Below are positions 1,671-56,888 of a stretch of 64,000 nucleotides of DNA, in pieces (position 1 is the first letter of the stretch; every line of letters starts with the position of its first letter). The translations under genes were made by a program, and so were the position numbers. Origin of the DNA: Candidatus Nealsonbacteria bacterium (lineage in GTDB: Bacteria; Patescibacteriota; Minisyncoccia; Minisyncoccales; CAZKCU01); contig CP179888.1 in assembly GCA_047456305.1 (NCBI GenBank), forward strand, positions 189,307 to 253,306, given 5' to 3'. The notes under the pieces are model-generated. The model was not told where the DNA came from. It searched no databases and saw only the letters and a program-made list of their open reading frames with translations.

Positions 1671-2429
1671 ATGTGGAAAAAGCTCAACATAAAAAACTTT
1701 GCTTTATCTCTTCTCTTTCCCCGGTTTTGCTTTTGCTGCCAGAAAGAAGGAAGTTATCTTTGTGAAGATTGTCTTTCTACTATTGAAATTTCTGAGCATC
1801 AATACTGTCTTTGTCAAAAGCCTCAAAAAATCTGGCAGGGAGGAAAATGTCAAAGATGTGTCTCCCGAAAACTCAACGGCCTTTATTTTGCTGCCCCCTA
1901 CCAAAATAGTTTAGTTCAAAACTTAATTCACAGCTTTAAATATAAGCCTTTTATAAAAGAGCTCTCAAAACCATTAGCTTCTTTAATAATAAATCATTTT
2001 CAATTACTCGACAATCCTCCTGATTTTTTTTACCCCGTTAAATCCCGCGAAGCGGGTGCGAAGCAATTTAACGGGGCTGAATTTCTTCTCCTGTCTATTC
2101 CTTTGGAGAAAAGGAAGTTAAAGGAGCGGGGATTTAATCAGGCAGAAGAATTAGCTAAAGAGCTCTCAAAATCCTTGAAAATCCCTTTGTTAAATGATGT
2201 CTTAATAAAAATAAAAGAAACTTTACCCCAAGTTGAACTTTCCGGGAAAAAAAGAGAAGAAAATATCAAAGGAGTATTTTTGGTAAAAAATACTGAGAAA
2301 ATAAGAGGAAGAAAAGTTCTTTTAGTTGACGATGTTTACACAACCGGCTCAACTATGGATGAGGGTGCCCGAGTTTTAAAAACGGCTGGAGCAAAAGAGG
2401 TTTGGGGAGTGGTAGTAGCCAGAGGATAA
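1671..2429 (+). CDS. comF: ComF family protein (zinc-ribbon N-terminus plus phosphoribosyltransferase fold)
   Basis: 252 aa. N-terminal CxxC...CxxC pairs and the C-terminal PRTase motif 'VLLVDDVYTTGSTMDE'. Carries an in-frame palindromic insertion at 2033-2076. Confidence 0.8.
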   Translation: MWKKLNIKNFALSLLFPRFCFCCQKEGSYLCEDCLSTIEISEHQYCLCQKPQKIWQGGKCQRCVSRKLNGLYFAAPYQNSLVQNLIHSFKYKPFIKELSKPLASLIINHFQLLDNPPDFFYPVKSREAGAKQFNGAEFLLLSIPLEKRKLKERGFNQAEELAKELSKSLKIPLLNDVLIKIKETLPQVELSGKKREENIKGVFLVKNTEKIRGRKVLLVDDVYTTGSTMDEGARVLKTAGAKEVWGVVVARG

Positions 2430-2489: not shown

Positions 2490-2575
2490 CGGAGGGGGTG
2501 AGATTTGAACTCACGAGGGCCTTTCAGCCCTAGTAGTTTTCAAGACTACTTGGGACAACCACTCCCGACCCCTCC
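2490..2575 (-). tRNA. tRNA-Ser(UGA), type II with long variable arm
   Basis: Hand-folded 86-nt cloverleaf. Acceptor GGAGGGG/CCCCTCC, anticodon loop CTTGAAA, variable arm GGGCTGAAAGGCCC, T-loop GTTCAAATC. No encoded CCA. Confidence 0.85.
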
Positions 2576-3589
2576 CAGCATAAGTTTGTATCTTTTCTGA
2601 ATGTTTGGATTATGGGTGCCTATTAAATCAAAGTACTTCATAATCTCGCTCTGATTTTCTAATTGGACATTTCTTTTGTTACGAATCTTTGGAGAAAAAT
2701 CTAATTCTTTCAATATTCTAACAACCGAAGAACAAAGTGATGTTGAGTAACTCGTAAAACATAATCGCGGATAACAATAAGTTCTCCCATTAATTCGGTG
2801 ATATTCGCGAAATAGACATCCATCTGTATCAATCAAACCTTTGATACAAGAAATTTTAAAAGATTTGTTCCTTTTAATCCATTCGGGAATATCCAAGTTT
2901 TGTTTTAATTTGTTGCCGATTTTTAAACCTATTGATTTACAAAACATTACTAATTTTGTGCGTGAAACAACAACATCAACTGTCGACTTATGTTTATTAT
3001 AAATACTTGGTTCTACTTTAAAAAGTTTTTTTATAAGACTCCTGACAAAAATACTATAAAGTTTCTCGGTCCCGCGATTTAGTGAAACAATCACTTGTTT
3101 TTTCGCAATTCCACCATCACCAATCATAATTCCGACAAATTCAGCTAGTTCTTCTGAGAAACGTGGTTTTTTAATTGGTTTAGTAACTCCAACAATGAGG
3201 TTTTTTCTATATTTGCCTTCTCTTTCCCACCACTCATACCATTTCTTTTTCCAATATTCAAGATCTCCTCCAATCCTTCCATATTTTTTTAATACCGCCT
3301 TTGCTCCTGCAGATGAACCAAGTGCTGTGTACCAATACCTGTCTCTTAACTCAATATTTGGAGGTATTTGGATTTTAGCTTTTTGAGACAAATCCTGAAC
3401 TACTCTCAGGGGCATAGAGTATTTTTCTCTTTTCCAGTCATTGAAAGTTCTTTTATGTACACCTATTATATCTGTGAGTTCAGCCCAAGAAAGTTTTAAT
3501 TTACCCACTGTTTTTGATAAAAAATGATACTGTTCACCAACTGGAAAAATAACTCTCTTTTCCATTTTAGAATTTAACAGTTCGGCCAT
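2546..3589 (-). CDS. free-standing LAGLIDADG-family homing endonuclease-like protein with N-terminal HTH
   Basis: 347 aa. Two LAGLIDADG motifs ('FVGIMIGDGGIA' and 'IKGLIDTDGCLF') and an N-terminal HTH-like segment 'LSWAELTDIIGVHKRTFNDWK'. The last ~30 nt overlap the 5' part of tRNA-Ser(UGA). Confidence 0.75.
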   Translation of the reverse strand: MAELLNSKMEKRVIFPVGEQYHFLSKTVGKLKLSWAELTDIIGVHKRTFNDWKREKYSMPLRVVQDLSQKAKIQIPPNIELRDRYWYTALGSSAGAKAVLKKYGRIGGDLEYWKKKWYEWWEREGKYRKNLIVGVTKPIKKPRFSEELAEFVGIMIGDGGIAKKQVIVSLNRGTEKLYSIFVRSLIKKLFKVEPSIYNKHKSTVDVVVSRTKLVMFCKSIGLKIGNKLKQNLDIPEWIKRNKSFKISCIKGLIDTDGCLFREYHRINGRTYCYPRLCFTSYSTSLCSSVVRILKELDFSPKIRNKRNVQLENQSEIMKYFDLIGTHNPNIQKRYKLMLGGVGSGCPK

Positions 3590-4759: not shown

Positions 4760-6943
4760 ATGAATCTCTCTACTCCCATTGAACAAATTCCTCGGGTTGG
4801 TCTCCAATATCAAAGAAGATTAAAAAAATTGGGGATAAAAACTGTTCAAGATCTTTTTTTTCATTTTCCTCATCGCTATGAGGATTTTTCAAAGATAATT
4901 CCAATTTCAAAAGCCGAGCCCGGTGGCCCTTTTTGTTTTCAAGGAAAAATTTTAGATATAAAAAACATCTACACTTCCAGAAAAAGAATGGTTTTAACCC
5001 AGGCAACTATTGGCGATAAAACCGGAAAACTAAAAGTAATTTGGTTTAACCAACCCTATCTCATCAACACTTTTAAAAAGGGGGATTATGTTTGTTTGGC
5101 AGGAAAAATAGCAAAAAAAGGAAGCGCAAAATATTTATCCAGCCCGGCCTATGAGAAAATTCCCCTAACACCTAATACCTATAACCTAACACCTCATCTA
5201 ACCCATACCGGAAGATTAATTCCGGTTTATCCAGAAACAGAAGGATTATCCTCAAGGTGGTTAAGATTTATTGTCAAACCTCTTCTGATAAAATTAAAAA
5301 ACCAAATTTCAGATTCTCTGCCAGAAAAAATCAGAAAAAAATATGAATTTTTACCCCTCCAAAAAGCAATTTGGCAAATCCATTTTCCTGACTCTTTGAA
5401 GTTAGCCCAAGAAGCAAAAAAAAGATTTGCCTTTGAGGAGTTATTTAATCTTTCACTTTTTGTTTTAAGAGAAAGAGTGAAATTAGCCAGAGAAAAAGCA
5501 ATTCCCATTCCTTTAAATCTGGCTCTTATTAAAGAATTTACTAAAAGCTTACCTTTTAAACTAACCGATGCTCAAAAGAAATCTGCCTGGCAGATATTAA
5601 AAGATTTAGAAAAACCTAGACCAATGAACCGGCTTTTGGAGGGTGACGTTGGCTCTGGGAAAACAGTGGTTGCAGCTATGGCTGCCTTAAATGTAGCTAA
5701 AGCTGGTTTTCAAATCGCTTTTATGGCACCGACAGAAATTTTAGCCAAACAGCATTATAAAACCCTAAATGGATTTTTAAACCCCGTCCCCTATGCTCGG
5801 CGTGATTTAACCAAACAGAATGCTAAAGGCTTAGGGGGCGGGGTGAATATTGGATTAATCACCGGCAAAGAAAGTTATTATGACAATAAAAAAATTACCA
5901 GAAAAGAACTTTTGAGAAAATTGGAGGAAGGGAAAATTGATATTTTAATTGGTACTCACGCCTTAGTCCAGGAAGGGGTAAAATTTGGAAAACTGGCTTT
6001 GGTAATCTTAGATGAACAACATCGTTTCGGCGTAGAGCAACGGGCCCGTCTCTGCCAACAACCAAAGTTTATCCCTCATCTTTTGTCAATGACTGCCACT
6101 CCTATCCCCCGCACCCTGTCTTTAACAGTTTTTGGCGACCTTGATTTATCTATTATTGATGAATTGCCCAAAGGTAGAAAAAAAATAATTACAAAAATCG
6201 TCCAGTCGAAAGATAAAAAAGAAACCTATAATTTTATCAGAGCCGAAGTTAAAGAGAACCGCCAAGTTTTTGTAATCTGTCCTCGGATTGAACCCGTCAA
6301 AACCTCTCCAGAAAATTTAGACGGTGAACTTTCACAGCAGGTATTAAGTTGGATGGAGGTAAAAGCAGTAAAAGATGAATATCAGAAACTTTCAAAAGAA
6401 ATTTTCCCTGACTTAAAAATCGGCATGCTCCACGGCAAAATGAAAACTCAAGAAAAGGAAAAAGTAATGAAAGATTTTAAAGATAAGAAAATTGATATTT
6501 TAGTATCAACTTCCGTCGTTGAAGTGGGGGTTGATATTCCTAATGCGACAGTAATGATGATTGAGGGTTCAGAAAAATTCGGTTTAGCCCAACTTCATCA
6601 GTTCAGAGGTAGAATAGGACGTTCTGATTTTCAATCTCACTGCTTTCTATTTACAGATGCGCTAGGCGTCGTAACAAACCGACGACTAAGAGCACTTCTC
6701 TCTTGCGAGAATGGTTTTGAGTTAGCGGAAAAAGATTTGGCAATCCGGGGACCCGGAGATTTTTCTGGTTCAAGGCAATGGGGAATTCCCGACCTGGCTA
6801 TGACTTCTCTAAAAGATATATTTTTAGTTGAAAAAGTAAGACAAATTGCAAAAAAATTATTAGAAGAGGACCCAGAATTAAAAAAATATCCCCTATTGCA
6901 AAAGAGATTAAAAAATTTTGGAGAAAAAATTCACCTGGAGTAA
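4760..6943 (+). CDS. recG: ATP-dependent DNA helicase RecG
   Basis: Motifs: wedge/OB N-terminus, helicase motif I 'GDVGSGKTVVA', DEQH box 'ILDEQHRFG', 'SMTATPIPRT' and 'HQFRGRIGR'. The ORF track starts at GTG 4739, inside the repeat. ATG 4760 (MNLSTPIEQ) is the preferred start. Confidence 0.9.
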   Translation: MNLSTPIEQIPRVGLQYQRRLKKLGIKTVQDLFFHFPHRYEDFSKIIPISKAEPGGPFCFQGKILDIKNIYTSRKRMVLTQATIGDKTGKLKVIWFNQPYLINTFKKGDYVCLAGKIAKKGSAKYLSSPAYEKIPLTPNTYNLTPHLTHTGRLIPVYPETEGLSSRWLRFIVKPLLIKLKNQISDSLPEKIRKKYEFLPLQKAIWQIHFPDSLKLAQEAKKRFAFEELFNLSLFVLRERVKLAREKAIPIPLNLALIKEFTKSLPFKLTDAQKKSAWQILKDLEKPRPMNRLLEGDVGSGKTVVAAMAALNVAKAGFQIAFMAPTEILAKQHYKTLNGFLNPVPYARRDLTKQNAKGLGGGVNIGLITGKESYYDNKKITRKELLRKLEEGKIDILIGTHALVQEGVKFGKLALVILDEQHRFGVEQRARLCQQPKFIPHLLSMTATPIPRTLSLTVFGDLDLSIIDELPKGRKKIITKIVQSKDKKETYNFIRAEVKENRQVFVICPRIEPVKTSPENLDGELSQQVLSWMEVKAVKDEYQKLSKEIFPDLKIGMLHGKMKTQEKEKVMKDFKDKKIDILVSTSVVEVGVDIPNATVMMIEGSEKFGLAQLHQFRGRIGRSDFQSHCFLFTDALGVVTNRRLRALLSCENGFELAEKDLAIRGPGDFSGSRQWGIPDLAMTSLKDIFLVEKVRQIAKKLLEEDPELKKYPLLQKRLKNFGEKIHLE

Positions 6944-22776: not shown

Positions 22777-22848
22777 GGGCACGTAGTTCATTGGTAGAAC
22801 GCTTCTCTTATAAAGAAGAGGTAGAAGGTTCGATCCCTTCCGTGCCCA
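22777..22848 (+). tRNA. tRNA-Ile(UAU)
   Basis: 72 nt starting 3 nt after the ftsH stop. Acceptor GGGCACG/CGTGCCC, anticodon stem CTTCT/AGAAG, loop CTTATAA (anticodon TAT), T-arm GAAGG-TTCGATC-CCTTC. Confidence 0.8.
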
Positions 22849-22855
22849 CACAAAT

Positions 22856-41228: not shown

Positions 41229-41301
41229 GGTTCACCCTGTTAAATAATTTCGCCTTTGGCGAAATTGCCGCAGAGTGGCATTTAACAGGGTAAAGTGAAC
41301 C
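41229..41301. repeat. ORF-less palindromic element with CCCTGTTAAAT / ATTTAACAGGG termini
   Basis: ggttcaCCCTGTTAAATaatttcgcctttggcgaaattgccgcagagtggcATTTAACAGGGtaaagtgaacc, with the inner hairpin AATTTCGCC-TTT-GGCGAAATT. The right arm overlaps the kinase stop codon. The same termini flank the GIY-YIG ORF at 48215-48499 and the comF insert at 2033-2076. Confidence 0.8.
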
Positions 41302-42256
41302 AAAAGGTCGACCCAACTCCCTCTTGGCTTGAAAATCCAATTTTTCCTCCTGATTTTTCAACAATGGCTTTGGTAATATAAAGACCTAAGCCTGATCCCT
41401 GGGTTTGATATCTCAAGACATTTTCTGAACGGAAAAATTTTTGGAAAATATATTTTTTATCTTCCTTAGGAATACCTACGCCATTATCTGCAATTTCAAA
41501 ATAAAGTTTTTTTCCTTTCTTCTCAAGTTTTATTTTAACTTTACCTTTATTTTTAATATAACGAATGGCATTATCTAAGAGATTCCCAATTACTAATCTA
41601 ATTTGAGAGGGATCAGCAAGAATCTCTGGTAAATCCTCCTCACTCTTGAATTTTACCTCAATATTTGAGGCCTGAATAAAAGGCTTAAATTCTAAGATTA
41701 AATCTTTTATTAAATTCTCTAAAGAAAACTTTCGCTTTTTTAAGGAAAGATCTCTTTGTTCAATTCTTGAAACGGTTAATAAATCTGAAATTAACTCCTC
41801 CATCCGACTATTATTTTCTTTTAAAATTTTAAAGTATTCTGTTTGTTTTTCCTCAATCTTGCCAATTCTGCCCGACATTAAAAGCTCAATCGCCCATCTT
41901 AAATTAGAAAGGGGACTTCTTAATTGATGAGAAACCACACTGATAAATTCTGATTTCATTCTATTTGCCTCAGCCAATCTCTCAAAGCCCTGAATTATAA
42001 TAAAATCAATAATAAACAAAGTGGCGGTTAATAAAAGTATAATCAGAGCTATTAGCACAGGGTCCTCAACATAGCGGGTACCTATGGCATAGGTAATGAC
42101 GGCTGTTCCAATAATAATTATTCCCATTATTAAAAAAAGAAATTGGGGACACTGCCAAAGAGAAAGGCCATAGCGCCTACACTGAGCAATGATATTAAAT
42201 TGACTAAAAACTTTCTTGAAGTTCACTAATTCCATTGTAGCATATTTGAAAAACAA
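41282..42256 (-). CDS. sensor histidine kinase (2 TM, HisKA plus HATPase_c)
   Basis: 324 aa. H-box 'SVVSHQLRSPLSNL', N-box 'LLDNAIRY', G1 'DNGVGIP', G2 'GSGLGLYI'. Confidence 0.85.
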   Translation of the reverse strand: MFFKYATMELVNFKKVFSQFNIIAQCRRYGLSLWQCPQFLFLIMGIIIIGTAVITYAIGTRYVEDPVLIALIILLLTATLFIIDFIIIQGFERLAEANRMKSEFISVVSHQLRSPLSNLRWAIELLMSGRIGKIEEKQTEYFKILKENNSRMEELISDLLTVSRIEQRDLSLKKRKFSLENLIKDLILEFKPFIQASNIEVKFKSEEDLPEILADPSQIRLVIGNLLDNAIRYIKNKGKVKIKLEKKGKKLYFEIADNGVGIPKEDKKYIFQKFFRSENVLRYQTQGSGLGLYITKAIVEKSGGKIGFSSQEGVGSTFWFTLPC

Positions 42257-44334: not shown

Positions 44335-47300
44335 TTAAAATGGCGCAATCTCTTTCCATATAGGAAGAGGAAGCTGACTATTTAAAGTTTTAGTGCGAGA
44401 ACAGGAGAAACCATCAGAATCAGTAACTCTGAGAGTAATGTCTTTTTCGCCAGTGGAAGGGAATTTAGCTGTTGGATTTTGCTCGGTGGAACTGGCCGGG
44501 CTGCCATCCTGGAAAGTCCAGAACCAGCTTTCTTTAGTAGTTCCTCCATAGACAGTTGATTGGTCAACGAATAAAACATCTTCATTAACGCTTGGTTTAA
44601 ATGGAGACCAGCTAAAGTCAATTTCTGGACAGGCATGTGTTGGGGTGCTAAAGCTGGGACCTGAAATCCAGTTAGAATCAAGGCCTTTATTATCCCAGAC
44701 TTTTAATCTCCAGTAATATGTATTGTTGTATTTCAACTTACCCAAGATAGTGGCATAGGAATTAGAGCTTGATGTTACTTTTCCAGAATCATCTTCAGGT
44801 TTAGAGAAATTACTATTGTTATCTACCTGAACTCGGTAGGCAGATTGAGTGTCTCCTGGGTCAGGGTCAGTGAAAGTCCAGGAGAAATACGCAGCTGGCC
44901 CAGAAAGACAATAATCTGGCTGGACTACCTTAAGATTGGTGGCTGAGGGAGGCTGATTGGGAATAACAGTTATAATAGTTACTGTTGTTGAACGGGAAAT
45001 ACTGCCTCCAGGACCAGTACATTTCATTGAGTAACTAGTGGTAATAGAAGGGCTAACCGGTCTACTGCCAGAAGTTGGCACTGAGCCTGACAAACCGGCT
45101 GTCCAGCTACAAGAACTAGTATTGCTTGAAGACCAACTTAAAGTAGAAGATTGACCTTTGTCAATTGAAGAAGGATTAGCGAATAAATTAAGGATAGGGA
45201 CAAGGCATGCGCTGTCAGCCACGCATCGAGATTGAGAATCACAGCCAGAAGGAGTACAGGTACGAGTTTGCTGTCTTTGGGTAGCAGAACAACTACCTCC
45301 TCCGCATGAACCATTAGCCCAACTTGTGCAAGAACAACCAATTTTTCTATAGCCGGTACAGTTTGGACAGTCAGAGCTATTCCAGGTACCAATTATTTCA
45401 TAACCTGAAGCTGGACTCCGTCTAGTACAGGAACAATCGGGCCAGACATGGCTGGTAGTACCGTGGTTTACACAAGTATGCCCACAGTCTGGTAGGGTTT
45501 TTTTATAGCCGGTGCAGTTTGGACAGTCAGAGCTATTCCAGGTTCCAATTATTTTATAACCTGAAGCTGGACTCCGTCTAGTACAGGAACAATCGGGCCA
45601 GCCAACACTCGCGGTACCATGATTTAAGCAGGTATGACCACAATCTGGTAAAATCGGTTTTTCTCTGCATTTCCCTTCTGAACAACCATAAGGACAAGCA
45701 ACACAATTGATTATGGCGTTTTCTTTTTGGCAACCAACTCCTTCAATACAGCCTCCAGAATAAACTGTTTTTTGGCACTCCCACCAACGACCGTACTTAT
45801 AATCACAATAAGAAGGACCAGTTTTGGAAGTTATTGGACCGCAGTCTCTTAGATAAACTTCAGAGGGTAGCCCAAAGTCCTGACAGTGACCTGTATCTCT
45901 GAAACAACCTCCAGAACACCATGTCTTATAATAAAGCTTAGTTCCATCGCAGTGGTATTCACCATCGGTGCAAGTCTTTGGGCCACAATCTTCCCAATCT
46001 GGTTCCCAGACCCTACAGTATGAGAGGAAAAGGCGTCTAGAGCACTCAATAAATCCTCCCAGACAAGCTTGGTTACCTATACATCCCGAATAACCCCCTT
46101 CTTGCTGACTACAATTACCACTAGGGATGCTTTTTCCACAAAGAGAAGTTTTTGTAGTTCCGGGTATAGACTTACATCTGCCCCAAGAACAATAATAACA
46201 TTCAGGGCACATATCATCGATCCAACAGACAGGGTATATAAGGCATCTTCCATCTGCACAGTCAAACTCACAATCTTCAACTCTTTCTTCATCGGGCTCA
46301 GTACGTTCATAGCACTCACTTTCTGAACATCCTCTCTTAACACAAATTGTCTTATGATAAACATCGCCGTCTTTACAATAGTTATCACCCCAATCGCCGC
46401 ACTCATCCGAGCCGCAGTCTTTTGACAAATAATCGTACTTCTTAAACACCCAGCAAGCACCGCCTGAGCAACCTCCAGAGCAGCTAAATGTATACCGGCG
46501 TTCGCTTCCGCTACAATAATAAGTAGCAGAGGTACAGGTCCTTTTGCCGCAATAAGTTACAGGCTCACTATTGGTGCCAGTAAAGTAATAGCAAGAACTT
46601 CCTGAACATCCCCGGTAGTAAACTGTTCTTTTTCTACGTAAATAATCACCTGAACAGTAATAGCTCCAGGAACCATAGCTGGTGGAGCCACAACTTCTTA
46701 CAGGCTCACTATTGGTGCCAGTAAAGTAATAGCAAGAACTTCCTGAACAACCCCGGTAGTAAACAGTTCTTTTTCTACGTAAATAATTCCCTGAACAATA
46801 ATAGCTCCAGGAACCATAGCTGGTGGAGCCGCAATAAGTTACATAACTCGTTTGGGTGCCAGTAAAGTAATAGCAAGAACTTCCTGAACAACCCCGGTAG
46901 TAAACTGTTCTTTTTTTGTATAGACTACTCCCCGAACAGTAATAACTCCAGGAACCATAGCTGGTGGAGCCGCAATAAGTTACATAACTCGTTTGGGTGC
47001 GGGTATAGTAATAACAAGAACTTCCTGAACAACCTCGGTAGTAAACAGTTCTCCTTTTGTATACTCTACTCCCGGAACAGTAGTAGCTCCAGGAGCCGTA
47101 GCTGGTGGAGCCGCAATTTGTTACATAACTCGTTTGGGTGCTAGTACGGTAATAACAAGAACCACCTGAACATCCCCGAGAGTAAACAGTTCTCCTTTTG
47201 TATACTCTACTCCCAGAACAGTAATAACTCCAAGAGCCGTAGCTGGTAGAGCCGCAGTTTTTTACATAGCTTGTTCGAGTTCTAGTATAGGAATAACACT

Positions 47301-47655
47301 TATTTCCTGAACAACCTCGGTAGTAAACAGTTCTCCTTTTGTATACTCTACTCCCGGAACAATAGTAGCTCCAGGAGCCATAGCTGGTAGAACCGCAGTT
47401 TTTATATTTTCTACAAGAACCACAGCCATAACGGGTGCAATATTTCCTTTGACGATAGTTACCAGAACAAGAACAGTTATAGCTATACCAAGAATATACT
47501 GCACTACAGTAATTTAGATGCTCAGTAATTGAAGACAGCCTAATACCAGACTGACCGTCCTCCAAAGATTTGTCAAAAGACCAATCAACCCTTAAAGGAA
47601 TAAGAGCTATCAAAAAAGCAAAAAATATAGAAATAAGAATTATTTTCTTATTCAT
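44335..47655 (-). CDS. giant secreted cysteine-rich repeat protein with C-terminal Ig-like, FN3-like and PKD-like domains (putative adhesin)
   Basis: 1106 aa. N-terminal signal/anchor (IILISIFFAFLIALIPL). Six 47-aa units 'CGSTSYGSWSYYCSG...KRRTVYYRGCSGSSCYY.T.T.....'. Further Cys-rich modules, including two 52-aa 'LPDCGHTC.NHGT...WPDCSCTRRSPASGY.IIGTWNSSDCPNCTGY' units. Then 'STLSWSS...SC' Ig-like, 'SAYRVQVDNNSNF...YYWRLKVWD' FN3-like and 'ITLRVTDSDG' PKD-like segments. Confidence 0.7.
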   Translation of the reverse strand: MNKKIILISIFFAFLIALIPLRVDWSFDKSLEDGQSGIRLSSITEHLNYCSAVYSWYSYNCSCSGNYRQRKYCTRYGCGSCRKYKNCGSTSYGSWSYYCSGSRVYKRRTVYYRGCSGNKCYSYTRTRTSYVKNCGSTSYGSWSYYCSGSRVYKRRTVYSRGCSGGSCYYRTSTQTSYVTNCGSTSYGSWSYYCSGSRVYKRRTVYYRGCSGSSCYYYTRTQTSYVTYCGSTSYGSWSYYCSGSSLYKKRTVYYRGCSGSSCYYFTGTQTSYVTYCGSTSYGSWSYYCSGNYLRRKRTVYYRGCSGSSCYYFTGTNSEPVRSCGSTSYGSWSYYCSGDYLRRKRTVYYRGCSGSSCYYFTGTNSEPVTYCGKRTCTSATYYCSGSERRYTFSCSGGCSGGACWVFKKYDYLSKDCGSDECGDWGDNYCKDGDVYHKTICVKRGCSESECYERTEPDEERVEDCEFDCADGRCLIYPVCWIDDMCPECYYCSWGRCKSIPGTTKTSLCGKSIPSGNCSQQEGGYSGCIGNQACLGGFIECSRRLFLSYCRVWEPDWEDCGPKTCTDGEYHCDGTKLYYKTWCSGGCFRDTGHCQDFGLPSEVYLRDCGPITSKTGPSYCDYKYGRWWECQKTVYSGGCIEGVGCQKENAIINCVACPYGCSEGKCREKPILPDCGHTCLNHGTASVGWPDCSCTRRSPASGYKIIGTWNSSDCPNCTGYKKTLPDCGHTCVNHGTTSHVWPDCSCTRRSPASGYEIIGTWNSSDCPNCTGYRKIGCSCTSWANGSCGGGSCSATQRQQTRTCTPSGCDSQSRCVADSACLVPILNLFANPSSIDKGQSSTLSWSSSNTSSCSWTAGLSGSVPTSGSRPVSPSITTSYSMKCTGPGGSISRSTTVTIITVIPNQPPSATNLKVVQPDYCLSGPAAYFSWTFTDPDPGDTQSAYRVQVDNNSNFSKPEDDSGKVTSSSNSYATILGKLKYNNTYYWRLKVWDNKGLDSNWISGPSFSTPTHACPEIDFSWSPFKPSVNEDVLFVDQSTVYGGTTKESWFWTFQDGSPASSTEQNPTAKFPSTGEKDITLRVTDSDGFSCSRTKTLNSQLPLPIWKEIAPF
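46552..47397 (-). repeat. 6 x 141-bp tandem repeats inside the giant gene
   Basis: aa 87-368 consist of six consecutive 47-aa units with high DNA-level identity (for example, the recurring ggaaccatagctggtggagcc... blocks), followed by a degenerate seventh unit. Confidence 0.9.
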
Positions 47656-47687: not shown

Positions 47688-48212
47688 TTACTCTGCTGGT
47701 ATCAAATCTACTGGCGATACCCGAACTTCGGTCCCCTCTATGGTATAGTCTGGCTTTAAATCCAAAGTGATAAAAACATTATCCTCTACCTTAATCTCTT
47801 CAAAACTAATTTCTTTTTCGCCCAGATTGTATTCTTTTCCTTCGGCAATACTGATTGTGCCTGTTATCTCCTCTCTTGCAGCTCCGGCTGGCAAAATATA
47901 ATCAGAAATGATTTTTGCCTCCTGGCTAATCGGAACTACTAAAGAAGGTGTCTCCTCTCCTGTCTCAGTAAATCCTGCAACGGTTAAATTACGACCAGAT
48001 ATTTCTTTTACGATACCACTAACAGAAAGCACCCACCGAATTGCTTCTGAAGCCAACAAAGAATCCATTTTTTGTAATTTTTCTGCTTCTAATCCTTTCT
48101 GTATTCCTGGAGTTATTCCTTGCCTTCCCACATTTAAACCAATATAATAACTTATCCCTATCAAAAAAATAGCAATGACAATAATGACGAAAATAGCTAT
48201 TTTTTTATTCAT
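47688..48212 (-). CDS. membrane-anchored protein of unknown function (paralog of 48826-49293)
   Basis: 174 aa. N-terminal TM anchor. Shares 'GLE.EK.Q...SL..SE......ISG.V.EI......V......EE..LV.P.SQEA.I......KEI.FE.IKV.D.VF' with the 155-aa ORF. Start codon abuts the GIY-YIG stop (TAAATG). Confidence 0.45.
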   Translation of the reverse strand: MNKKIAIFVIIVIAIFLIGISYYIGLNVGRQGITPGIQKGLEAEKLQKMDSLLASEAIRWVLSVSGIVKEISGRNLTVAGFTETGEETPSLVVPISQEAKIISDYILPAGAAREEITGTISIAEGKEYNLGEKEISFEEIKVEDNVFITLDLKPDYTIEGTEVRVSPVDLIPAE

Positions 48213-48470
48213 TTACCCTGTTAAATAAGATTTGAGCCTGTTCTTTAAGAACATCTTACCGAGATAAGTTTTTAAATACTTTTCTCGGTGAGTAGCATCT
48301 TTTTGACTTAGACAGGCTTCGTAATAAATTAACTTCAACGGTCTTCTGTCTTTAGTGGACTTAACTAATCCCTTCCGATGCTGCTCAAATCTTAATTTTA
48401 AATTGTTAGTATACCCTGTATATAATTTTTTATCTTTGTCTGACTTCAAAACCTAAACATAATGAAACAT
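48213..48470 (-). pseudogene. GIY-YIG nuclease-family gene (UPF0213/YhbQ-like) with in-frame TAG at codon 6
   Basis: Reading from ATG 48470 gives MFHYV-TAG-VLKSDKDKKLYTGYTNNLKLRFEQHRKG...REKYLK. The TAG (48453-48455) sits where the conserved Tyr of the 'YVY(I/V)L' GIY strand is expected. The ORF track only reports the TTG-initiated remainder (48213-48449). Confidence 0.6.
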
Positions 48471-48687
48471 AACAAAGATTTAAAATTATTTAACAGGGTT
48501 AATTTTCGACCTTTAAAAAACTTTACTTTATTTATTATACAATTATACCATAATTATTACATTATATGTCAATGTTATTATATCACAATTAAAAAATAGA
48601 AAGCCTGTGGATAACTAAAGAACTATTTTAAATGGCATTTAGTTAAATAACCTTTTTAAAAATTTTTGTAAAAAGGAGGTAATACTT

Positions 48688-50050: not shown

Positions 50051-50127
50051 CTTAAAAGAGTGGAGCTTCAAAAGAAAAAGCCGAGTGGTTTTTTAGAAAG
50101 TTTCAGATACCACTCGGTTTTTTAATA
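50051..50127. repeat. 77-nt repeat R1 with terminator-like hairpin
   Basis: cttaaaagagtggagcttcaaaagaaaaagCCGAGTGGTtttttagaaagtttcagatACCACTCGGtttttt. About 85% identical to R2 (50465-50541). Confidence 0.85.
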
Positions 50128-50464: not shown

Positions 50465-50541
50465 CTTAAAAGAGCGAGACTTTAAAAGAAAAACCCGAGT
50501 GGTTTTTTAGAAAGTTCTAAGGACCACTCGGTTTTTTAATA
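50465..50541. repeat. 77-nt repeat R2 with terminator-like hairpin (downstream of clpP)
   Basis: cttaaaagagcgagactttaaaagaaaaacCCGAGTGGTtttttagaaagttctaaggACCACTCGGtttttt. Confidence 0.85.
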
Positions 50542-56777: not shown

Positions 56778-56848
56778 TGGACCCGGGCAGATTTGAACTG
56801 CCGTTTCTACAATGCGAATGTAGCGTTCTTCCACTGAACTACAGGCCC
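56778..56848 (-). tRNA. tRNA-Ala(CGC)
   Basis: 71 nt. Acceptor GGGCCTG/CGGGTCC with G3:U70, anticodon stem CTACA/TGTAG, loop TTCGCAT, T-arm GGCAG-TTCAAAT-CTGCC. Confidence 0.8.
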
Positions 56849-56879
56849 CGTAGAAGAATTTCGAAATTCTTCTACGGGG
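56846..56879. repeat. 34-nt perfect palindrome between two tRNA genes
   Basis: CCCCGTAGAAGAATTTCGAAATTCTTCTACGGGG. Its last three bases on the minus strand are the first three G of tRNA-Ala(CGC). Confidence 0.95.
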
Positions 56880-56888
56880 CAGACCCGG

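Follow-up and report, generated by a model that had tools for sequence, protein, structure and literature searches.

How a folded, GC-rich palindrome came to lie within a coding sequence, and what could have moved it, is the question raised by comF in the 64,000-nucleotide stretch of Candidatus Nealsonbacteria DNA analysed here, which is referred to below as the window. An earlier note, based on the letters of the window alone, had proposed that a miniature element was inserted in frame in this gene and that nearly the same termini bracket two further units, one of them containing a gene for a GIY-YIG nuclease. The three copies, termed E1, E2 and E3, are located in Table 1.

Table 1 Location of the three element copies and their associated genes in the window.
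Feature	Position	Strand	Basis
comF, host gene of the insertion (ComFC-type phosphoribosyltransferase-fold protein, 252 aa)	1671–2429	+	ORF; homologues with Pfam PF00156/PF18912, named ComF family protein
E1, inserted DNA of 48 bp (TTTA tail and 44-bp palindrome)	2029–2076	+	empty orthologous site in L001
E1 left terminus, CCCCGTTAAAT	2033–2043	+	degenerate 11-mer, inverted pair
E1 internal hairpin A, CCCGC-GAA-GCGGG	2044–2056	+	fold
E1 internal mini-hairpin B, TGC-GAA-GCA	2057–2065	+	fold
E1 right terminus, ATTTAACGGGG	2066–2076	+	degenerate 11-mer, inverted pair
E2, ORF-less copy of 60 bp (TTCA tail and 56-bp palindrome)	41231–41290	+	empty alleles L208, L207, L210
E2 termini	41235–41245, 41280–41290	+	inverted pair
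E2 hairpins	41246–41266, 41267–41279	+	fold
Sensor histidine-kinase gene, C-terminus altered by E2	41282–42256	−	comparison with empty alleles
E3, full-length unit (TTTA and termini 48216–48226 and 48488–48498), enclosing the nuclease gene	48212–48498	+	inverted pair
GIY-YIG nuclease gene, 85 codons, pseudogene	48213–48470	−	translation; Pfam PF01541

E1 is an insertion in comF

The palindrome at 2033–2076 reads CCCCGTTAAAT / CCCGCGAAGCGGG TGCGAAGCA / ATTTAACGGGG and is, as the earlier note had described it, a perfect 11-bp inverted repeat, here placed around two mini-hairpins. Within the ComF ORF it is translated as ..FFYPVKSREAGAKQFNGAEF.., residues about 120–135 (FYPVKSREAGAKQFNG) being encoded by E1. 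The degenerate terminus CCCYGTTAAAT has exactly six matches in the window, all of them in three inverted pairs (2033/2066, 41235/41280 and 48216/48488), against a mean of 0.11 in dinucleotide shuffles, none of 100 of which reached six. As a single strand the E1 48-mer folds into an outer stem with two hairpins (DNA −17.7 kcal/mol, z = −4.95), a stability matched by none of 200 shuffles. The stem of hairpin A displays compensatory changes in related copies (CCGGC/GCCGG and CCGCC/GGCGG), where the encoded residues differ. The mini-hairpin B unit is also present in copies from loci L053, L073 and L110, and the E1-type core recurs in unrelated genes of other genomes (the same three loci and L119).

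Aside from exactly 48 bp, the DNA of the closest ComF homologue (L001, 87% identical) runs colinear with the window, thus bearing out the proposed in-frame insertion. In the empty site CCTGATTTTT is joined directly to CTGAATTTC, and the window corresponds to L001 plus positions 2029–2076. The interval 2033–2076 originally given for the element therefore describes the palindrome correctly, while the inserted DNA also includes the TTTA. Neither a target duplication nor a flanking direct repeat was found at E1 when the window was compared with the L001 DNA. Similarly, the alignment of orthologues suggested in the note revealed that 16 residues are absent from the eight closest homologues (75–87% identity, 236 versus 252 aa). 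ComF homologues at 60–67% identity do have an insert, and to the nucleotide it occupies the position of E1. A peptide at this site in distant orthologues was to have counted against an insertion, and such peptides occur; they do not refute it, however, because these inserts, too, are palindromic elements, and their termini, of the GTTAG type, are related. Those of L002 and L203 have a common G.T mismatch in their termini (CCCCGTTAG..CTAATGGGG), and the distant inserts are patchy across the ComF tree, where filled and empty alleles are interleaved and the window branches from among eight empty relatives.

In the AlphaFold model of ComF (mean pLDDT 76.7) the E1 residues constitute the lowest-confidence stretch (pLDDT below 50 at 123–128) and are positioned between helix 96–112 and strand 138–142, the first strand of the PRT fold. 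From this model we read the E1 peptide as a probable loop by which 16 residues are added to ComF. E1 would now play no role for ComF except as an added, tolerated loop.

E2 rewrites the end of a histidine-kinase gene

The second unit had been delimited as an ORF-less copy at 41229–41301 with nearly the same termini. Its inverted pair is present at 41235/41280, but the outer arms, GGTTCAC/GTGAACC, are mostly native histidine-kinase coding sequence. The target of E2 (fold z = −7.65) was the last codons of this gene, and a 3-nt junction ambiguity allows its start to be placed anywhere in 41229–41232. The empty alleles L208, L207 and L210 read ..TGGTTYACWTTACCNATHAAATAA, whereas the window reads ..CACTTTA / CCCTG..CAGGGTGAA / CCAATTAAATAA (slashes mark the junctions), with the native P-I-K-stop codons remaining downstream. 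The protein ends in ..TLPC* with E2 as opposed to the native ..TLPIK*, the stop being a TAA inside the element terminus. The near-identical genes of L209 and L210 differ by 60 inserted bp, CCAA / (TTCACCC..GGG) / TAAA, and the 3' end of the histidine-kinase gene has thus received two independent insertions, 8 nt apart. Two further assemblies of this organism (L205 and L206) have E2 with an identical sequence, and no insertion polymorphism was found in the window's own species; when exact-protein matches were used to look for empty E2 and E3 sites at the strain level, only identical filled copies or no record came back.

E3 encloses a GIY-YIG nuclease gene

The claim that nearly the same termini surround a GIY-YIG gene at 48215–48499 held, since the pair 48216/48488 encloses that gene. 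E3 is the only cassette copy in the window, and codon 6 of its nuclease gene is an in-frame TAG (MFHYV*VLKSD..) within the GIY motif; any nuclease activity must therefore come from another copy. Once repaired, the 85-residue product matches Pfam PF01541 over residues 3–72 (E = 4.2e-16). Its last codons, ..YLTG and the stop, are encoded by the terminus and the tail. The same termini lie just outside the ORF, 250–340 bp apart, in 72 of the 80 closest GIY-YIG relatives, and these 72 units share the architecture and the size class of E3 (281–299 bp, one of 314; mode 285–287). Full-length nuclease ORFs (75–100 aa), 69 of them distinct, were recovered from the loci of 77 of the 80 relatives. The two termini co-vary: among 52 distinct cassettes the bracketed position of GT[T]AAAT is T-A in 39, C-G in 9 and G-C in 4 with no mismatches, and a second terminus position is C-G in 48 and T-A in 4. 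Such covariation is also expected if one protein recognises both ends and is no proof of a folded intermediate. The orientation of the flanks relative to the nuclease ORF is not fixed (32 versus 15).

The closest solved structures to the nuclease are the UPF0213 proteins 1ZG2 (E = 1.3e-6) and 1YWL (E = 6e-4), and its identity is 42% to B. subtilis yazA (tblastn) and 35%, pairwise, to the N. gonorrhoeae SsnA orthologue. A profile of the clade, built from 70 sequences (the repaired window copy and 69 relatives), scores YazA at 48.9 bits, BH0048 at 39.7 and gonococcal SsnA at 35.4; judged by score, the clade appears slightly closer to YazA/UPF0213 than to SsnA. For UPF0213/YazA-YhbQ genes a single-copy, housekeeping-type setting with no repeats beside the gene would be expected; B. 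subtilis yazA lies between trmNF and rsmI, with overlap of both annotated genes. In contrast, the clade described here displays inverted termini in varied contexts.

Short copies are widespread and many have a predicted three-way-junction fold

Short copies, in which the termini surround short two-hairpin cores, were found in at least 119 genome stretches, including MAGs of Patescibacteria, Desulfobacterales, WOR-3, Omnitrophota, Bacteroidota and others, and the termini are identical across many phyla. The proposal of one MITE-like family stands in that the three window copies belong together and their termini recur, both in these stretches and in the 72 cassettes, but not as regards a classical MITE, since there is no target-site duplication. 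A short copy usually consists of two termini and two small GC-rich hairpins with A-rich triloops. Of 126 distinct short copies, 72 have a predicted outer stem with two hairpins, compared with 8% after shuffling of the core, and triloops account for 120 of 204 loops, mostly C(aaa)G and C(gaa)G. One strand of a short copy folds as a Y- or T-shaped three-way junction, and the copy can be read as two units of conserved motif plus hairpin, inverted in a REPIN-like manner. The interior occurs in both orientations, as judged from the flank orientation against the order of the two hairpins (24 versus 23). The flanks fall mostly in the mixed class TTT..GAA / TTC..AAA (42, versus 7 in the matched classes), and TTTA/TAAA is found on at least one side in 46 of the 49 classified flank pairs.

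The cores of the short copies have no sequence in common with the nuclease ORF, and GIY-YIG ORFs near short copies outside the window number three, in 3 of about 120 loci. A scan of 2.9 million viral contigs gave one match, so the element is not phage-borne. A split RecG in L204 has no element behind it. Literature searches yielded nothing relevant on palindromic elements in CPR, on GIY-YIG with TIR/MITE, on GIY-YIG in Patescibacteria, on UPF0213/YhbQ/COG2827 or on the terminus sequences, one match being a primer coincidence.

The inserted unit and the reading-frame rule

Target duplication is absent from all four filled/empty comparisons (ComF, Desulfobacterales, the histidine-kinase C-terminus and L209/L210). 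In the Desulfobacterales comparison (L018, L030, L044, L084 and L114 filled, L091 empty) the TAAA tail is located inside the inserted DNA. What is inserted comprises the palindrome and a tail of 4 nt (5' TTYA or, equivalently, 3' TRAA), usually beside TTTA/TAAA, which adjoins the element in two of the four pairs. The boundaries vary: the TTTA tail of E1 lies beside CTGAA, the TTCA of E2 and L209 beside TAAA, and the Desulfobacterales elements beside CGGGG/CAGGC. The same sites, in ComF and at the histidine-kinase 3' end, are hit repeatedly. When the retrieved loci were compared all against all, the only pairs with an empty site were those of ComF and Desulfobacterales.

Several other boundary models were discarded. 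Insertion of A...T into the centre of TTTGAA, between TTT and GAA, adds L+2 and goes against both the whole-codon rule described below and the ComF and histidine-kinase empty sites, while insertion of YA...TR between TT and AA fits ComF only with a substitution and fails at the Desulfobacterales junction. No junction shows the direct repeat that a staggered GIY-YIG cut with a 2-bp duplication would leave, and base pairing between tail and target is disfavoured as a targeting rule by the 42 mismatched tail/flank combinations versus 7 perfect ones. A resemblance to integron attC sites (GTTRRRY / RYYYAAC) was rejected on inspection, the core motifs being present in an order reversed relative to attC.

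Long ORFs contain 16 of 133 copies (12%). In all 16 the terminus-to-terminus length is 2 mod 3, the class that adds whole codons, in comparison with 49/36/32 for the remaining copies over the length classes, and 14 of the 16 read xPVK..FN(G/R)V. Copies within genes occur only in the frame that avoids the TAA of the terminus, leading to xPVKS...FNGV peptides. The earlier note had left it between tolerance of, and selection for, in-frame insertion. The counts agree with insertions that are tolerated only in frame and not with selection for them, most of a bacterial genome being coding while long ORFs hold no more than 12% of the copies. In-frame copies thus look like survivors rather than products of selection, and the in-ORF copies give a simple rule for such survival. 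The element family also explains a recurrent oddity of Patescibacteria annotation, namely proteins with xPVKS...FNGV or NPVR...SNGV loops; in such inserts it is the DNA structure and not the peptide that is constrained, which is of relevance for alignments, phylogenies and structure prediction in Patescibacteria genomes.

Comparison with the Ssn/NTS system

The closest published system to the cassette and its hairpins is Ssn/NTS (cd10448), in which hairpin repeats flank the genes of single-domain GIY-YIG ssDNA nucleases (Chenal et al., Nat Commun 2025, PMC11893778). Ssn enzymes bind their hairpin repeats only as ssDNA, cutting immediately upstream, although cutting of ssDNA alone beside a folded repeat is established for the Neisseria and Wolbachia enzymes only; that the repeat-gene-repeat order is IS-like had been remarked on by the authors, who left open whether and how the repeats move (PMC11893778). 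The two systems have in common a single-domain GIY-YIG protein of about 85–94 aa, a gene bracketed by the repeat with many gene-less copies, and hairpin repeats with a conserved, orienting flanking motif; the NTS hairpin CCCGCG-MAV-GCGGG resembles CCCGC-GAA-GCGGG of E1. The SRM pattern HGTCWYN(0-2)YYVSBRHN(0-5)WNVSBRGN(0-2)RNCYNB has nevertheless no match on either strand of the window, against five in the 1 kb around N. gonorrhoeae ssnA that served as positive control. Here each flank of the gene is half of an inverted pair and not a complete hairpin, so that the nuclease gene sits inside one long-range stem, and two units have their conserved motifs turned towards one another and paired, the short copies being three-way-junction doublets. 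NTS repeats lie inside genes in only 2% of cases, none in frame, and Rickettsia is listed among the genomes with more than 300 SRM repeats (PMC11893778). A further difference is that mobility is documented here by filled and empty sites, which provide clean before-and-after states for a sister system of Ssn: the exact unit, the lack of duplication, the TTTA neighbour and the repeated use of sites. This mobility is directly testable with oligonucleotides and one 85-residue protein.

Proposed mechanism and alternative explanations

Taken together, E1 is probably a miniature, non-autonomous version of a small, selfish GIY-YIG cassette by which it was mobilised. The full cassette, of about 285 bp, consists of an 85-codon stand-alone GIY-YIG gene within 12–14-bp inverted termini, ACCCYGTTAAAT(AA). 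By analogy with Ssn, the GIY-YIG protein of an intact copy may act in trans, recognising the folded single strand and nicking it at the foot of the stem. Host functions would then copy or ligate the hairpin strand into single-stranded target DNA, as IS200/IS605 elements do in their 'peel and paste' mode. It speaks against this scheme that the joining step would need a catalyst, GIY-YIG enzymes being hydrolytic nucleases with no known strand-transfer activity. It is a more tentative suggestion, to which we would give somewhat less than an even chance, that cassette and miniature hairpins together form an active and previously undescribed type of transposable element, consisting of GIY-YIG-mobilised ssDNA three-way-junction hairpins that insert beside TTTA without duplication and cross phyla. 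If they are a GIY-YIG-mobilised element, the missing mobility mechanism for Ssn/NTS-type repeats would be supplied, and possibly also one for palindromes inserted in frame in reduced genomes at large.

The repeats could instead be domesticated cis-sites for a host-kept ssDNA nuclease that trims incoming ssDNA in transformation, their spread being historical. Ssn/NTS modulates transformation in N. meningitidis, where a domesticated NTS-ssnA-NTS element has been suggested (PMC11893778), competence and type IV pilus machinery surrounds the window copies (ComF, PilM, PilO-like and T2SSE), and nuclease ORFs are full-length at nearly all relatives' loci (69 distinct, 77 of 80). We consider this unlikely, however, given that the window's own nuclease gene is a pseudogene, that copies lie inside coding sequence and have rewritten one gene end, that near-identical genes differ by recent insertions, and that identical termini across many phyla fit horizontal selfish spread better than lineage-specific domestication. 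The domesticated and the selfish states are not mutually exclusive. It is distinctly improbable that the nuclease is a hitch-hiker, a free-standing GIY-YIG homing-type gene that invaded the loop of an older palindrome, with the short copies spread by another transposase or by replication or recombination at hairpins. The absence of nuclease sequence from the short-copy cores, the scarcity of nuclease genes close to short copies and the fact that GIY-YIG nucleases are not known to ligate would agree with it. Against this, terminus and tail encode the last four codons and the stop of the ORF in essentially all relatives, so that gene and terminus are one unit; the termini also co-vary with the cassette lineage, and no other transposase is recurrently linked in the loci, which were searched for GIY-YIG only.

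Two further explanations concern E1 itself. Were it an ancestral ComF loop, precisely lost many times, with the palindrome as an old frozen element, the identical nucleotide position of the inserts at 60–67% identity would follow, and the G.T mismatch of L002 and L203 does suggest common descent within that group. But the nesting of the window among eight empty relatives, the canonical, perfect GTTAAAT termini of E1, unlike those of the GTTAG-type ComF inserts, the presence of its core type in unrelated genes of other genomes and the lack of flanking direct repeats to drive repeated precise deletion make such a history very improbable. Hardly any credence is due to a feature at the RNA level, be it a structured RNA, a processing site or an intron-like segment of transcripts, even though the fold is stable with RNA parameters too and G.T positions in some stems would be G.U pairs. 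Every copy in an ORF contributes a whole number of codons and stays open in the frame of its host, a property that excised segments would not need, and the A-rich triloops closed by C-G are typical of stable DNA mini-hairpins. Moreover, both core orientations occur, copies are also present in intergenic DNA, and Rfam at gathering thresholds matched only tRNAs in the window. Those relatives of the nuclease that have been characterised leave RNA untouched (PMC11893778).

Relation to other mobile elements

REPINs are non-autonomous doublets of inverted hairpin repeats, and the RAYT gene presumed to mobilise them is flanked by inverted repeats. The short copies resemble them as mobile doublets of inverted hairpins, to judge from the 72 copies with an outer stem and two hairpins. 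In contrast, RAYT is an HUH/Y1 enzyme with a covalent intermediate and the protein here a GIY-YIG hydrolase; REPINs are also extragenic, whereas the present elements occur in frame inside genes as well. IS200/IS605 elements such as IS608 insert beside a specific tetranucleotide without target duplication and have hairpin-forming ends and strand asymmetry, all features seen here with TTTA/TAAA as the neighbour. They differ in that neither TnpA(Y1 HUH) nor TnpB is present, the only ORF being GIY-YIG, and in that the two ends of the 48–290-bp element pair together in place of separate subterminal hairpins.

Rickettsia palindromic elements, of about 100–150 bp and known from Rickettsia, are likewise short palindromic repeats in frame in coding genes, adding a peptide and leaving the protein undestroyed. 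The comparison drawn with them in the earlier note is apt as an analogy, with the difference that an associated nuclease cassette is found here. Classical MITEs and the Correia elements of Neisseria are similarly small and numerous, with terminal inverted repeats shared with a gene-bearing partner, the termini of the present elements being perfect over 11–12 bp; no target-site duplication accompanies these elements (four of four filled/empty pairs), and their partner encodes only a GIY-YIG nuclease domain, not known as a transposase, and no DDE enzyme. The inverted terminal repeats of AAV form a T- or Y-shaped hairpin of an outer stem and two internal palindromes, with an interior that can 'flip' and 'flop'. 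Although replicons and enzymes are unrelated, AAV Rep being an HUH protein, the short copies offer a purely structural parallel, both in their T/Y shape and in an interior that is found in either orientation.

Insertion of a GC-rich palindrome into comF

The comF gene of the window (36% G+C for the whole stretch) contains in frame the GC-rich palindrome E1. The terminal motif CCCYGTTAAAT is present exactly six times in the window, as three inverted pairs (2033/2066, 41235/41280 and 48216/48488) belonging to E1, to the ORF-less short copy E2 and to E3, a cassette with a GIY-YIG gene; after shuffling of the window the mean was 0.11 and six were reached in 0 of 100 shuffles. As a single strand, E1 is predicted to form an outer stem of 11–12 bp around two mini-hairpins (z about −5, DNA parameters), and E2 adopts the same predicted fold (z −7.7). 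Sequence, exact counts and fold thus bear out the in-frame palindrome and the three terminus pairs of the earlier note, and its proposal of an insertion is upheld by comparison with related ComF. Sixteen E1 residues are absent from the eight closest homologues (75–87% identity, 236 aa), and the DNA encoding the closest of them (L001, JGI metagenome) aligns colinearly with that of the window apart from 48 bp. The empty site in L001 is CCTGATTTTT/CTGAATTTC (slash, junction), to which the window adds exactly 48 bp, TTTA plus the 44-bp palindrome, at an unambiguous junction and with no target duplication. In the AlphaFold model of ComF the E1 residues form the lowest-confidence stretch (pLDDT <50 at 123–128), located between helix 96–112 and the first phosphoribosyltransferase-fold strand, 138–142; the peptide is interpreted as a tolerated loop that probably lies at the surface.

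Features of the window discussed in the text
Feature	Position	Strand	Description
E1 palindrome	2033-2076		CCCCGTTAAAT-CCCGCGAAGCGGG-TGCGAAGCA-ATTTAACGGGG; within 252-codon ComF ORF 1671-2429
E1 inserted unit	2029-2076		TTTA + palindrome
LAGLIDADG_3 ORF	2546-3589	-	347 aa; PF14528, E = 3e-6; between two tRNA-Ser genes, overlapping tRNA-Ser(tga) 2489-2575 by 30 nt; directly 3' of comF
recG palindrome	5782-5843		GC-rich, in frame; AACCCCGTCCCCTA..TAGGGGGCGGGGTG, flanks TTTAA/TGAAT; encodes 22 residues, NPVPYARRDLTKQNAKGLGGGV
tRNA-Ile	22777-22849		Predicted; anticodon TAT
E2	41231-41290		Short copy at 3' end of histidine-kinase gene
Repeat protein	44335-47655	-	1106 aa; many Cys-rich CGSTSYGSWSYYCSGS-type repeats; C-terminal Ig/PKD domains (PF25788, PF18911)
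E3 cassette	48212-48498		85-codon GIY-YIG ORF on minus strand; PF01541, E = 4e-16
49-nt segments	50075-50123; 50489-50537		Near-identical, 365 nt apart, computed as inverted pair; each with a terminator-like hairpin (AAAAAGCCGAGTGGT..ACCACTCGGTTTTTT)
tRNA-adjacent palindrome	56845-56880		Perfect, 36 bp, GCCCCGTAGAAGAATTTC/GAAATTCTTCTACGGGGC; between tRNA-Ala(cgc) and tRNA-Pro(cgg), abutting the tRNA-Ala 5' end; right flank CAGAC resembles Desulfobacterales copies

More distant ComF (60–67% identity) carry an insert at the identical nucleotide position. These inserts too are palindromic, and their termini resemble those of E1 without being the same (TTTACCCCGTTAG..CTAATGGGG in loci L002 and L203). 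In a ComF tree computed after removal of the insert columns, alleles with and without the insert are intermingled, so the site has been repeatedly hit or repeatedly cleared. For the lineage of the window, which branches within a group of empty relatives, a fresh gain of E1 is the more parsimonious reading of this tree.

Other GC-rich in-frame inserts are present at other sites in ComF proteins P0007, P0016, P0040 and P0042 and in kinase P0126 (PARQSPEADRPIAGE); the ComF types among relatives include NPVR..ISNGV and YPVR..FSNGV, P0007 being one example. Where the window has E2, a GC-rich block of 155 nt separates the kinase gene from the response-regulator gene in locus L207 (2179-2333). These genomes thus seem to be colonised by more than one family of elements, apparently several. 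The window's recG palindrome, at whose site RecG differs from that of L001 and L002 by a 17-residue gap, has a length of 62 (2 mod 3); its termini differ from those of E1–E3 and its flank layout is the same, and from these features it is probably a sister subfamily. In L204 (7432-9624) recG is broken into two ORFs, probably through a frameshift or assembly error; the breakpoint holds no palindromic element.

The inserted unit and its flanks

Three further pairs of filled and empty orthologous sites define the inserted unit. In Desulfobacterales, L018, L030, L044, L084 and L114 are filled and L091 is empty, and ..CAGGGTAAA/TCATTGCG is a sharp junction that places the TAAA tail within the insert. 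At the E2 site the kinase gene of empty alleles ends ..ACTTTACCNATHAAATAA (TLPIK stop); the window reads ..CACTTTA/CCCTG..CAGGGTGAA/CCAATTAAATAA, 60 bp longer (junction ambiguous by 3 nt), and the kinase ends ..TLPC at a TAA within the terminus, leaving the native P-I-K-stop codons stranded downstream. The near-identical genes of L209 and L210 differ by a 60-bp insert in L209 (CCAA/TTCACCC..CAGGG/TAAA); this insert is 8 nt away from the E2 site, and its core is reversed relative to E2. In all four comparisons, ComF included, the insert equals the terminus-to-terminus length plus 4 nt, and duplication is found in none. Flanks across copies are asymmetric, TTT..GAA (TTC..AAA on the other strand) being found 42 times and matched combinations 7 times, and this asymmetry follows neither the direction of the nuclease ORF (32 vs 15) nor the hairpin order (24 vs 23). 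The simplest reading of these alignments would be a mobile unit consisting of the palindrome and a 4-nt tail, which lands beside TTTA/TAAA. This landing rule is loose, because E1 neighbours CTGAA (tail TTTA) and the Desulfobacterales copies neighbour CGGGG/CAGGC.

Short copies across genomes and within genes

Scanning one genome per species with the pattern ACCCYGTTAAAT-N20-50-ATTTAACRGGG revealed short copies in at least 119 genome stretches. The matches listed include Patescibacteria MAGs (Nealsonbacteria, Parcubacteria, Doudnabacteria, Nomurabacteria, Niyogibacteria, Moranbacteria, Kuenenbacteria, Saccharibacteria), MAGs of Desulfobacterales/Thermodesulfobacteriota, WOR-3, Omnitrophota, Bacteroidota, Cloacimonadota and Calditrichaceae, and a few further groups with single MAGs each, for which binning errors are possible; viral contigs gave one match in 2.9 million. 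The cores vary in sequence and keep their structure: the outer stem with two hairpins is found in 72 of 126 distinct short copies vs 8% after core shuffling, and 120 of 204 loops are triloops, mainly C(aaa)G or C(gaa)G. In E1-type copies of other genomes hairpin A is preserved by compensatory changes (CCCGC/GCGGG, CCGGC/GCCGG, CCGCC/GGCGG) and the encoded residues differ; the constraint is therefore on nucleic-acid structure and not on the peptide.

Within long ORFs, defined as open for at least 60 codons at both sides of the copy, 16 of 133 short copies were found (15 if two L008 copies, identical including flanks and possibly one duplicated contig end, count once). All 16 have a length of 2 mod 3 (44, 50, 53, 56, 59 or 62), such that with the tail each adds a whole number of codons; the remaining copies spread over the three length classes (49/36/32). 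The in-ORF reading is xPVKS...(Q/L)FN(G/R)V in 14 and TLLN...LTG in 2, and the third frame runs into the TAA of the terminus, the same that truncated the kinase at E2. In the PVK frame, this TAA also terminates protein P0134, at ..IHPVK-stop. The pattern fits inserts that are translated, with out-of-frame copies being lost, and not excision from mRNA. The earlier suggestion that the family tolerates, or is selected for, in-frame insertion stands for tolerance; insertion into genes is not favoured, since just 12% of copies lie in long ORFs.

WOR-3/Stahlbacteria copies (L016, L020, L024, L033, L061, L065, L076, L095, L101) have an AT-rich unstructured core flanked by direct repeats (aaccacaga...gaaccacaga), and other WOR-3 copies have cgcaga at both sides; those with repeat flanks may belong to some larger composite repeat.

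The GIY-YIG cassette

Codon 6 of the E3 nuclease ORF, which lies in the GIY motif, is an in-frame TAG, so the gene is a pseudogene in the window. Searching metagenomes with the repaired protein gave at least 512 confirmed relatives among 600 stretches listed. In 72 of the best 80 of these (74–94% identity) the same termini bracket the gene, 281–314 bp apart and 281–299 bp in all except one; the other eight are mostly truncated or diverged. The upstream end of the 72 is TTY-ACCCYGTTAAATAATTTTAAAT, followed by 5–25 nt and the ATG, while downstream the ORF enters the terminus (..SYLTG) and stops at the following TAA or TGA. The termini covary: among 52 distinct cassettes one position is T-A in 39, C-G in 9 and G-C in 4, with no mismatch, and a second is C-G in 48 and T-A in 4. 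Full-length nuclease ORFs (75–100 aa) were recovered from 77 of the 80 loci, 69 of them distinct. These shared termini make E1 and E2 gene-less relatives of the nuclease cassette, and the single family proposed for E1, E2 and E3 is supported. Nuclease genes seldom adjoin short copies, which is what an enzyme acting in trans would lead one to expect.

Relation to known systems and mobility

Literature searches on the element features and terminus sequences found no relevant description. The closest known kind is Ssn/NTS, membership of that family being not established. Ssn are single-domain GIY-YIG enzymes of ~94 aa (CDD cd10448) that bind a hairpin repeat (NTS/SRM) in single-stranded DNA only and cut just upstream; their genes often have the repeat at both sides, and the authors point out a likeness to IS200/IS605 and RAYT/REP and propose a domesticated mobile element (Chenal et al. 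2025, PMC11893778). By eye, the E1 left terminus and hairpin A (CGTTAAAT-CCCGCGAAGCGGG) resemble NTS (CGTCATT-CCCGCGMAVGCGGG), so a short copy looks like two NTS-like units face to face, as in a REPIN. The published SRM pattern has 0 matches in the window and 5 in the control, 1 kb around gonococcal ssnA. The nuclease-clade profile scores B. subtilis YazA at 48.9 bits, BH0048 at 39.7 and gonococcal SsnA, to which the nuclease has 35% pairwise identity, at 35.4; the nearest solved structures are UPF0213 proteins. In contrast to Ssn/NTS, the present element offers direct comparative evidence of mobility and in-frame survivors in genes.

By analogy with Ssn enzymes, the nuclease might recognise the folded single strand and nick it at the stem foot, after which host replication or repair functions would place the hairpin strand in single-stranded target DNA by copying or ligation. 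Against mobility driven by the nuclease, the window's own copy is dead, no polymorphism came to light within the species of the window, and no GIY-YIG enzyme is known to join DNA. Overall, the observation and interpretation of the comF element hold, and its most fitting classification is as a variant of the 'GIY-YIG nuclease plus hairpin repeat' kind described recently.

The window carries 24 tRNA genes per 64 kb. Tandem, abutting or part-duplicated copies or ends are found in other genomes (L015:2050-2161, L072:2103-2228, L135, L137, L166), with examples of two elements AC or TTC apart and of duplicated left termini; this arrangement suggests insertion beside or into copies already there.
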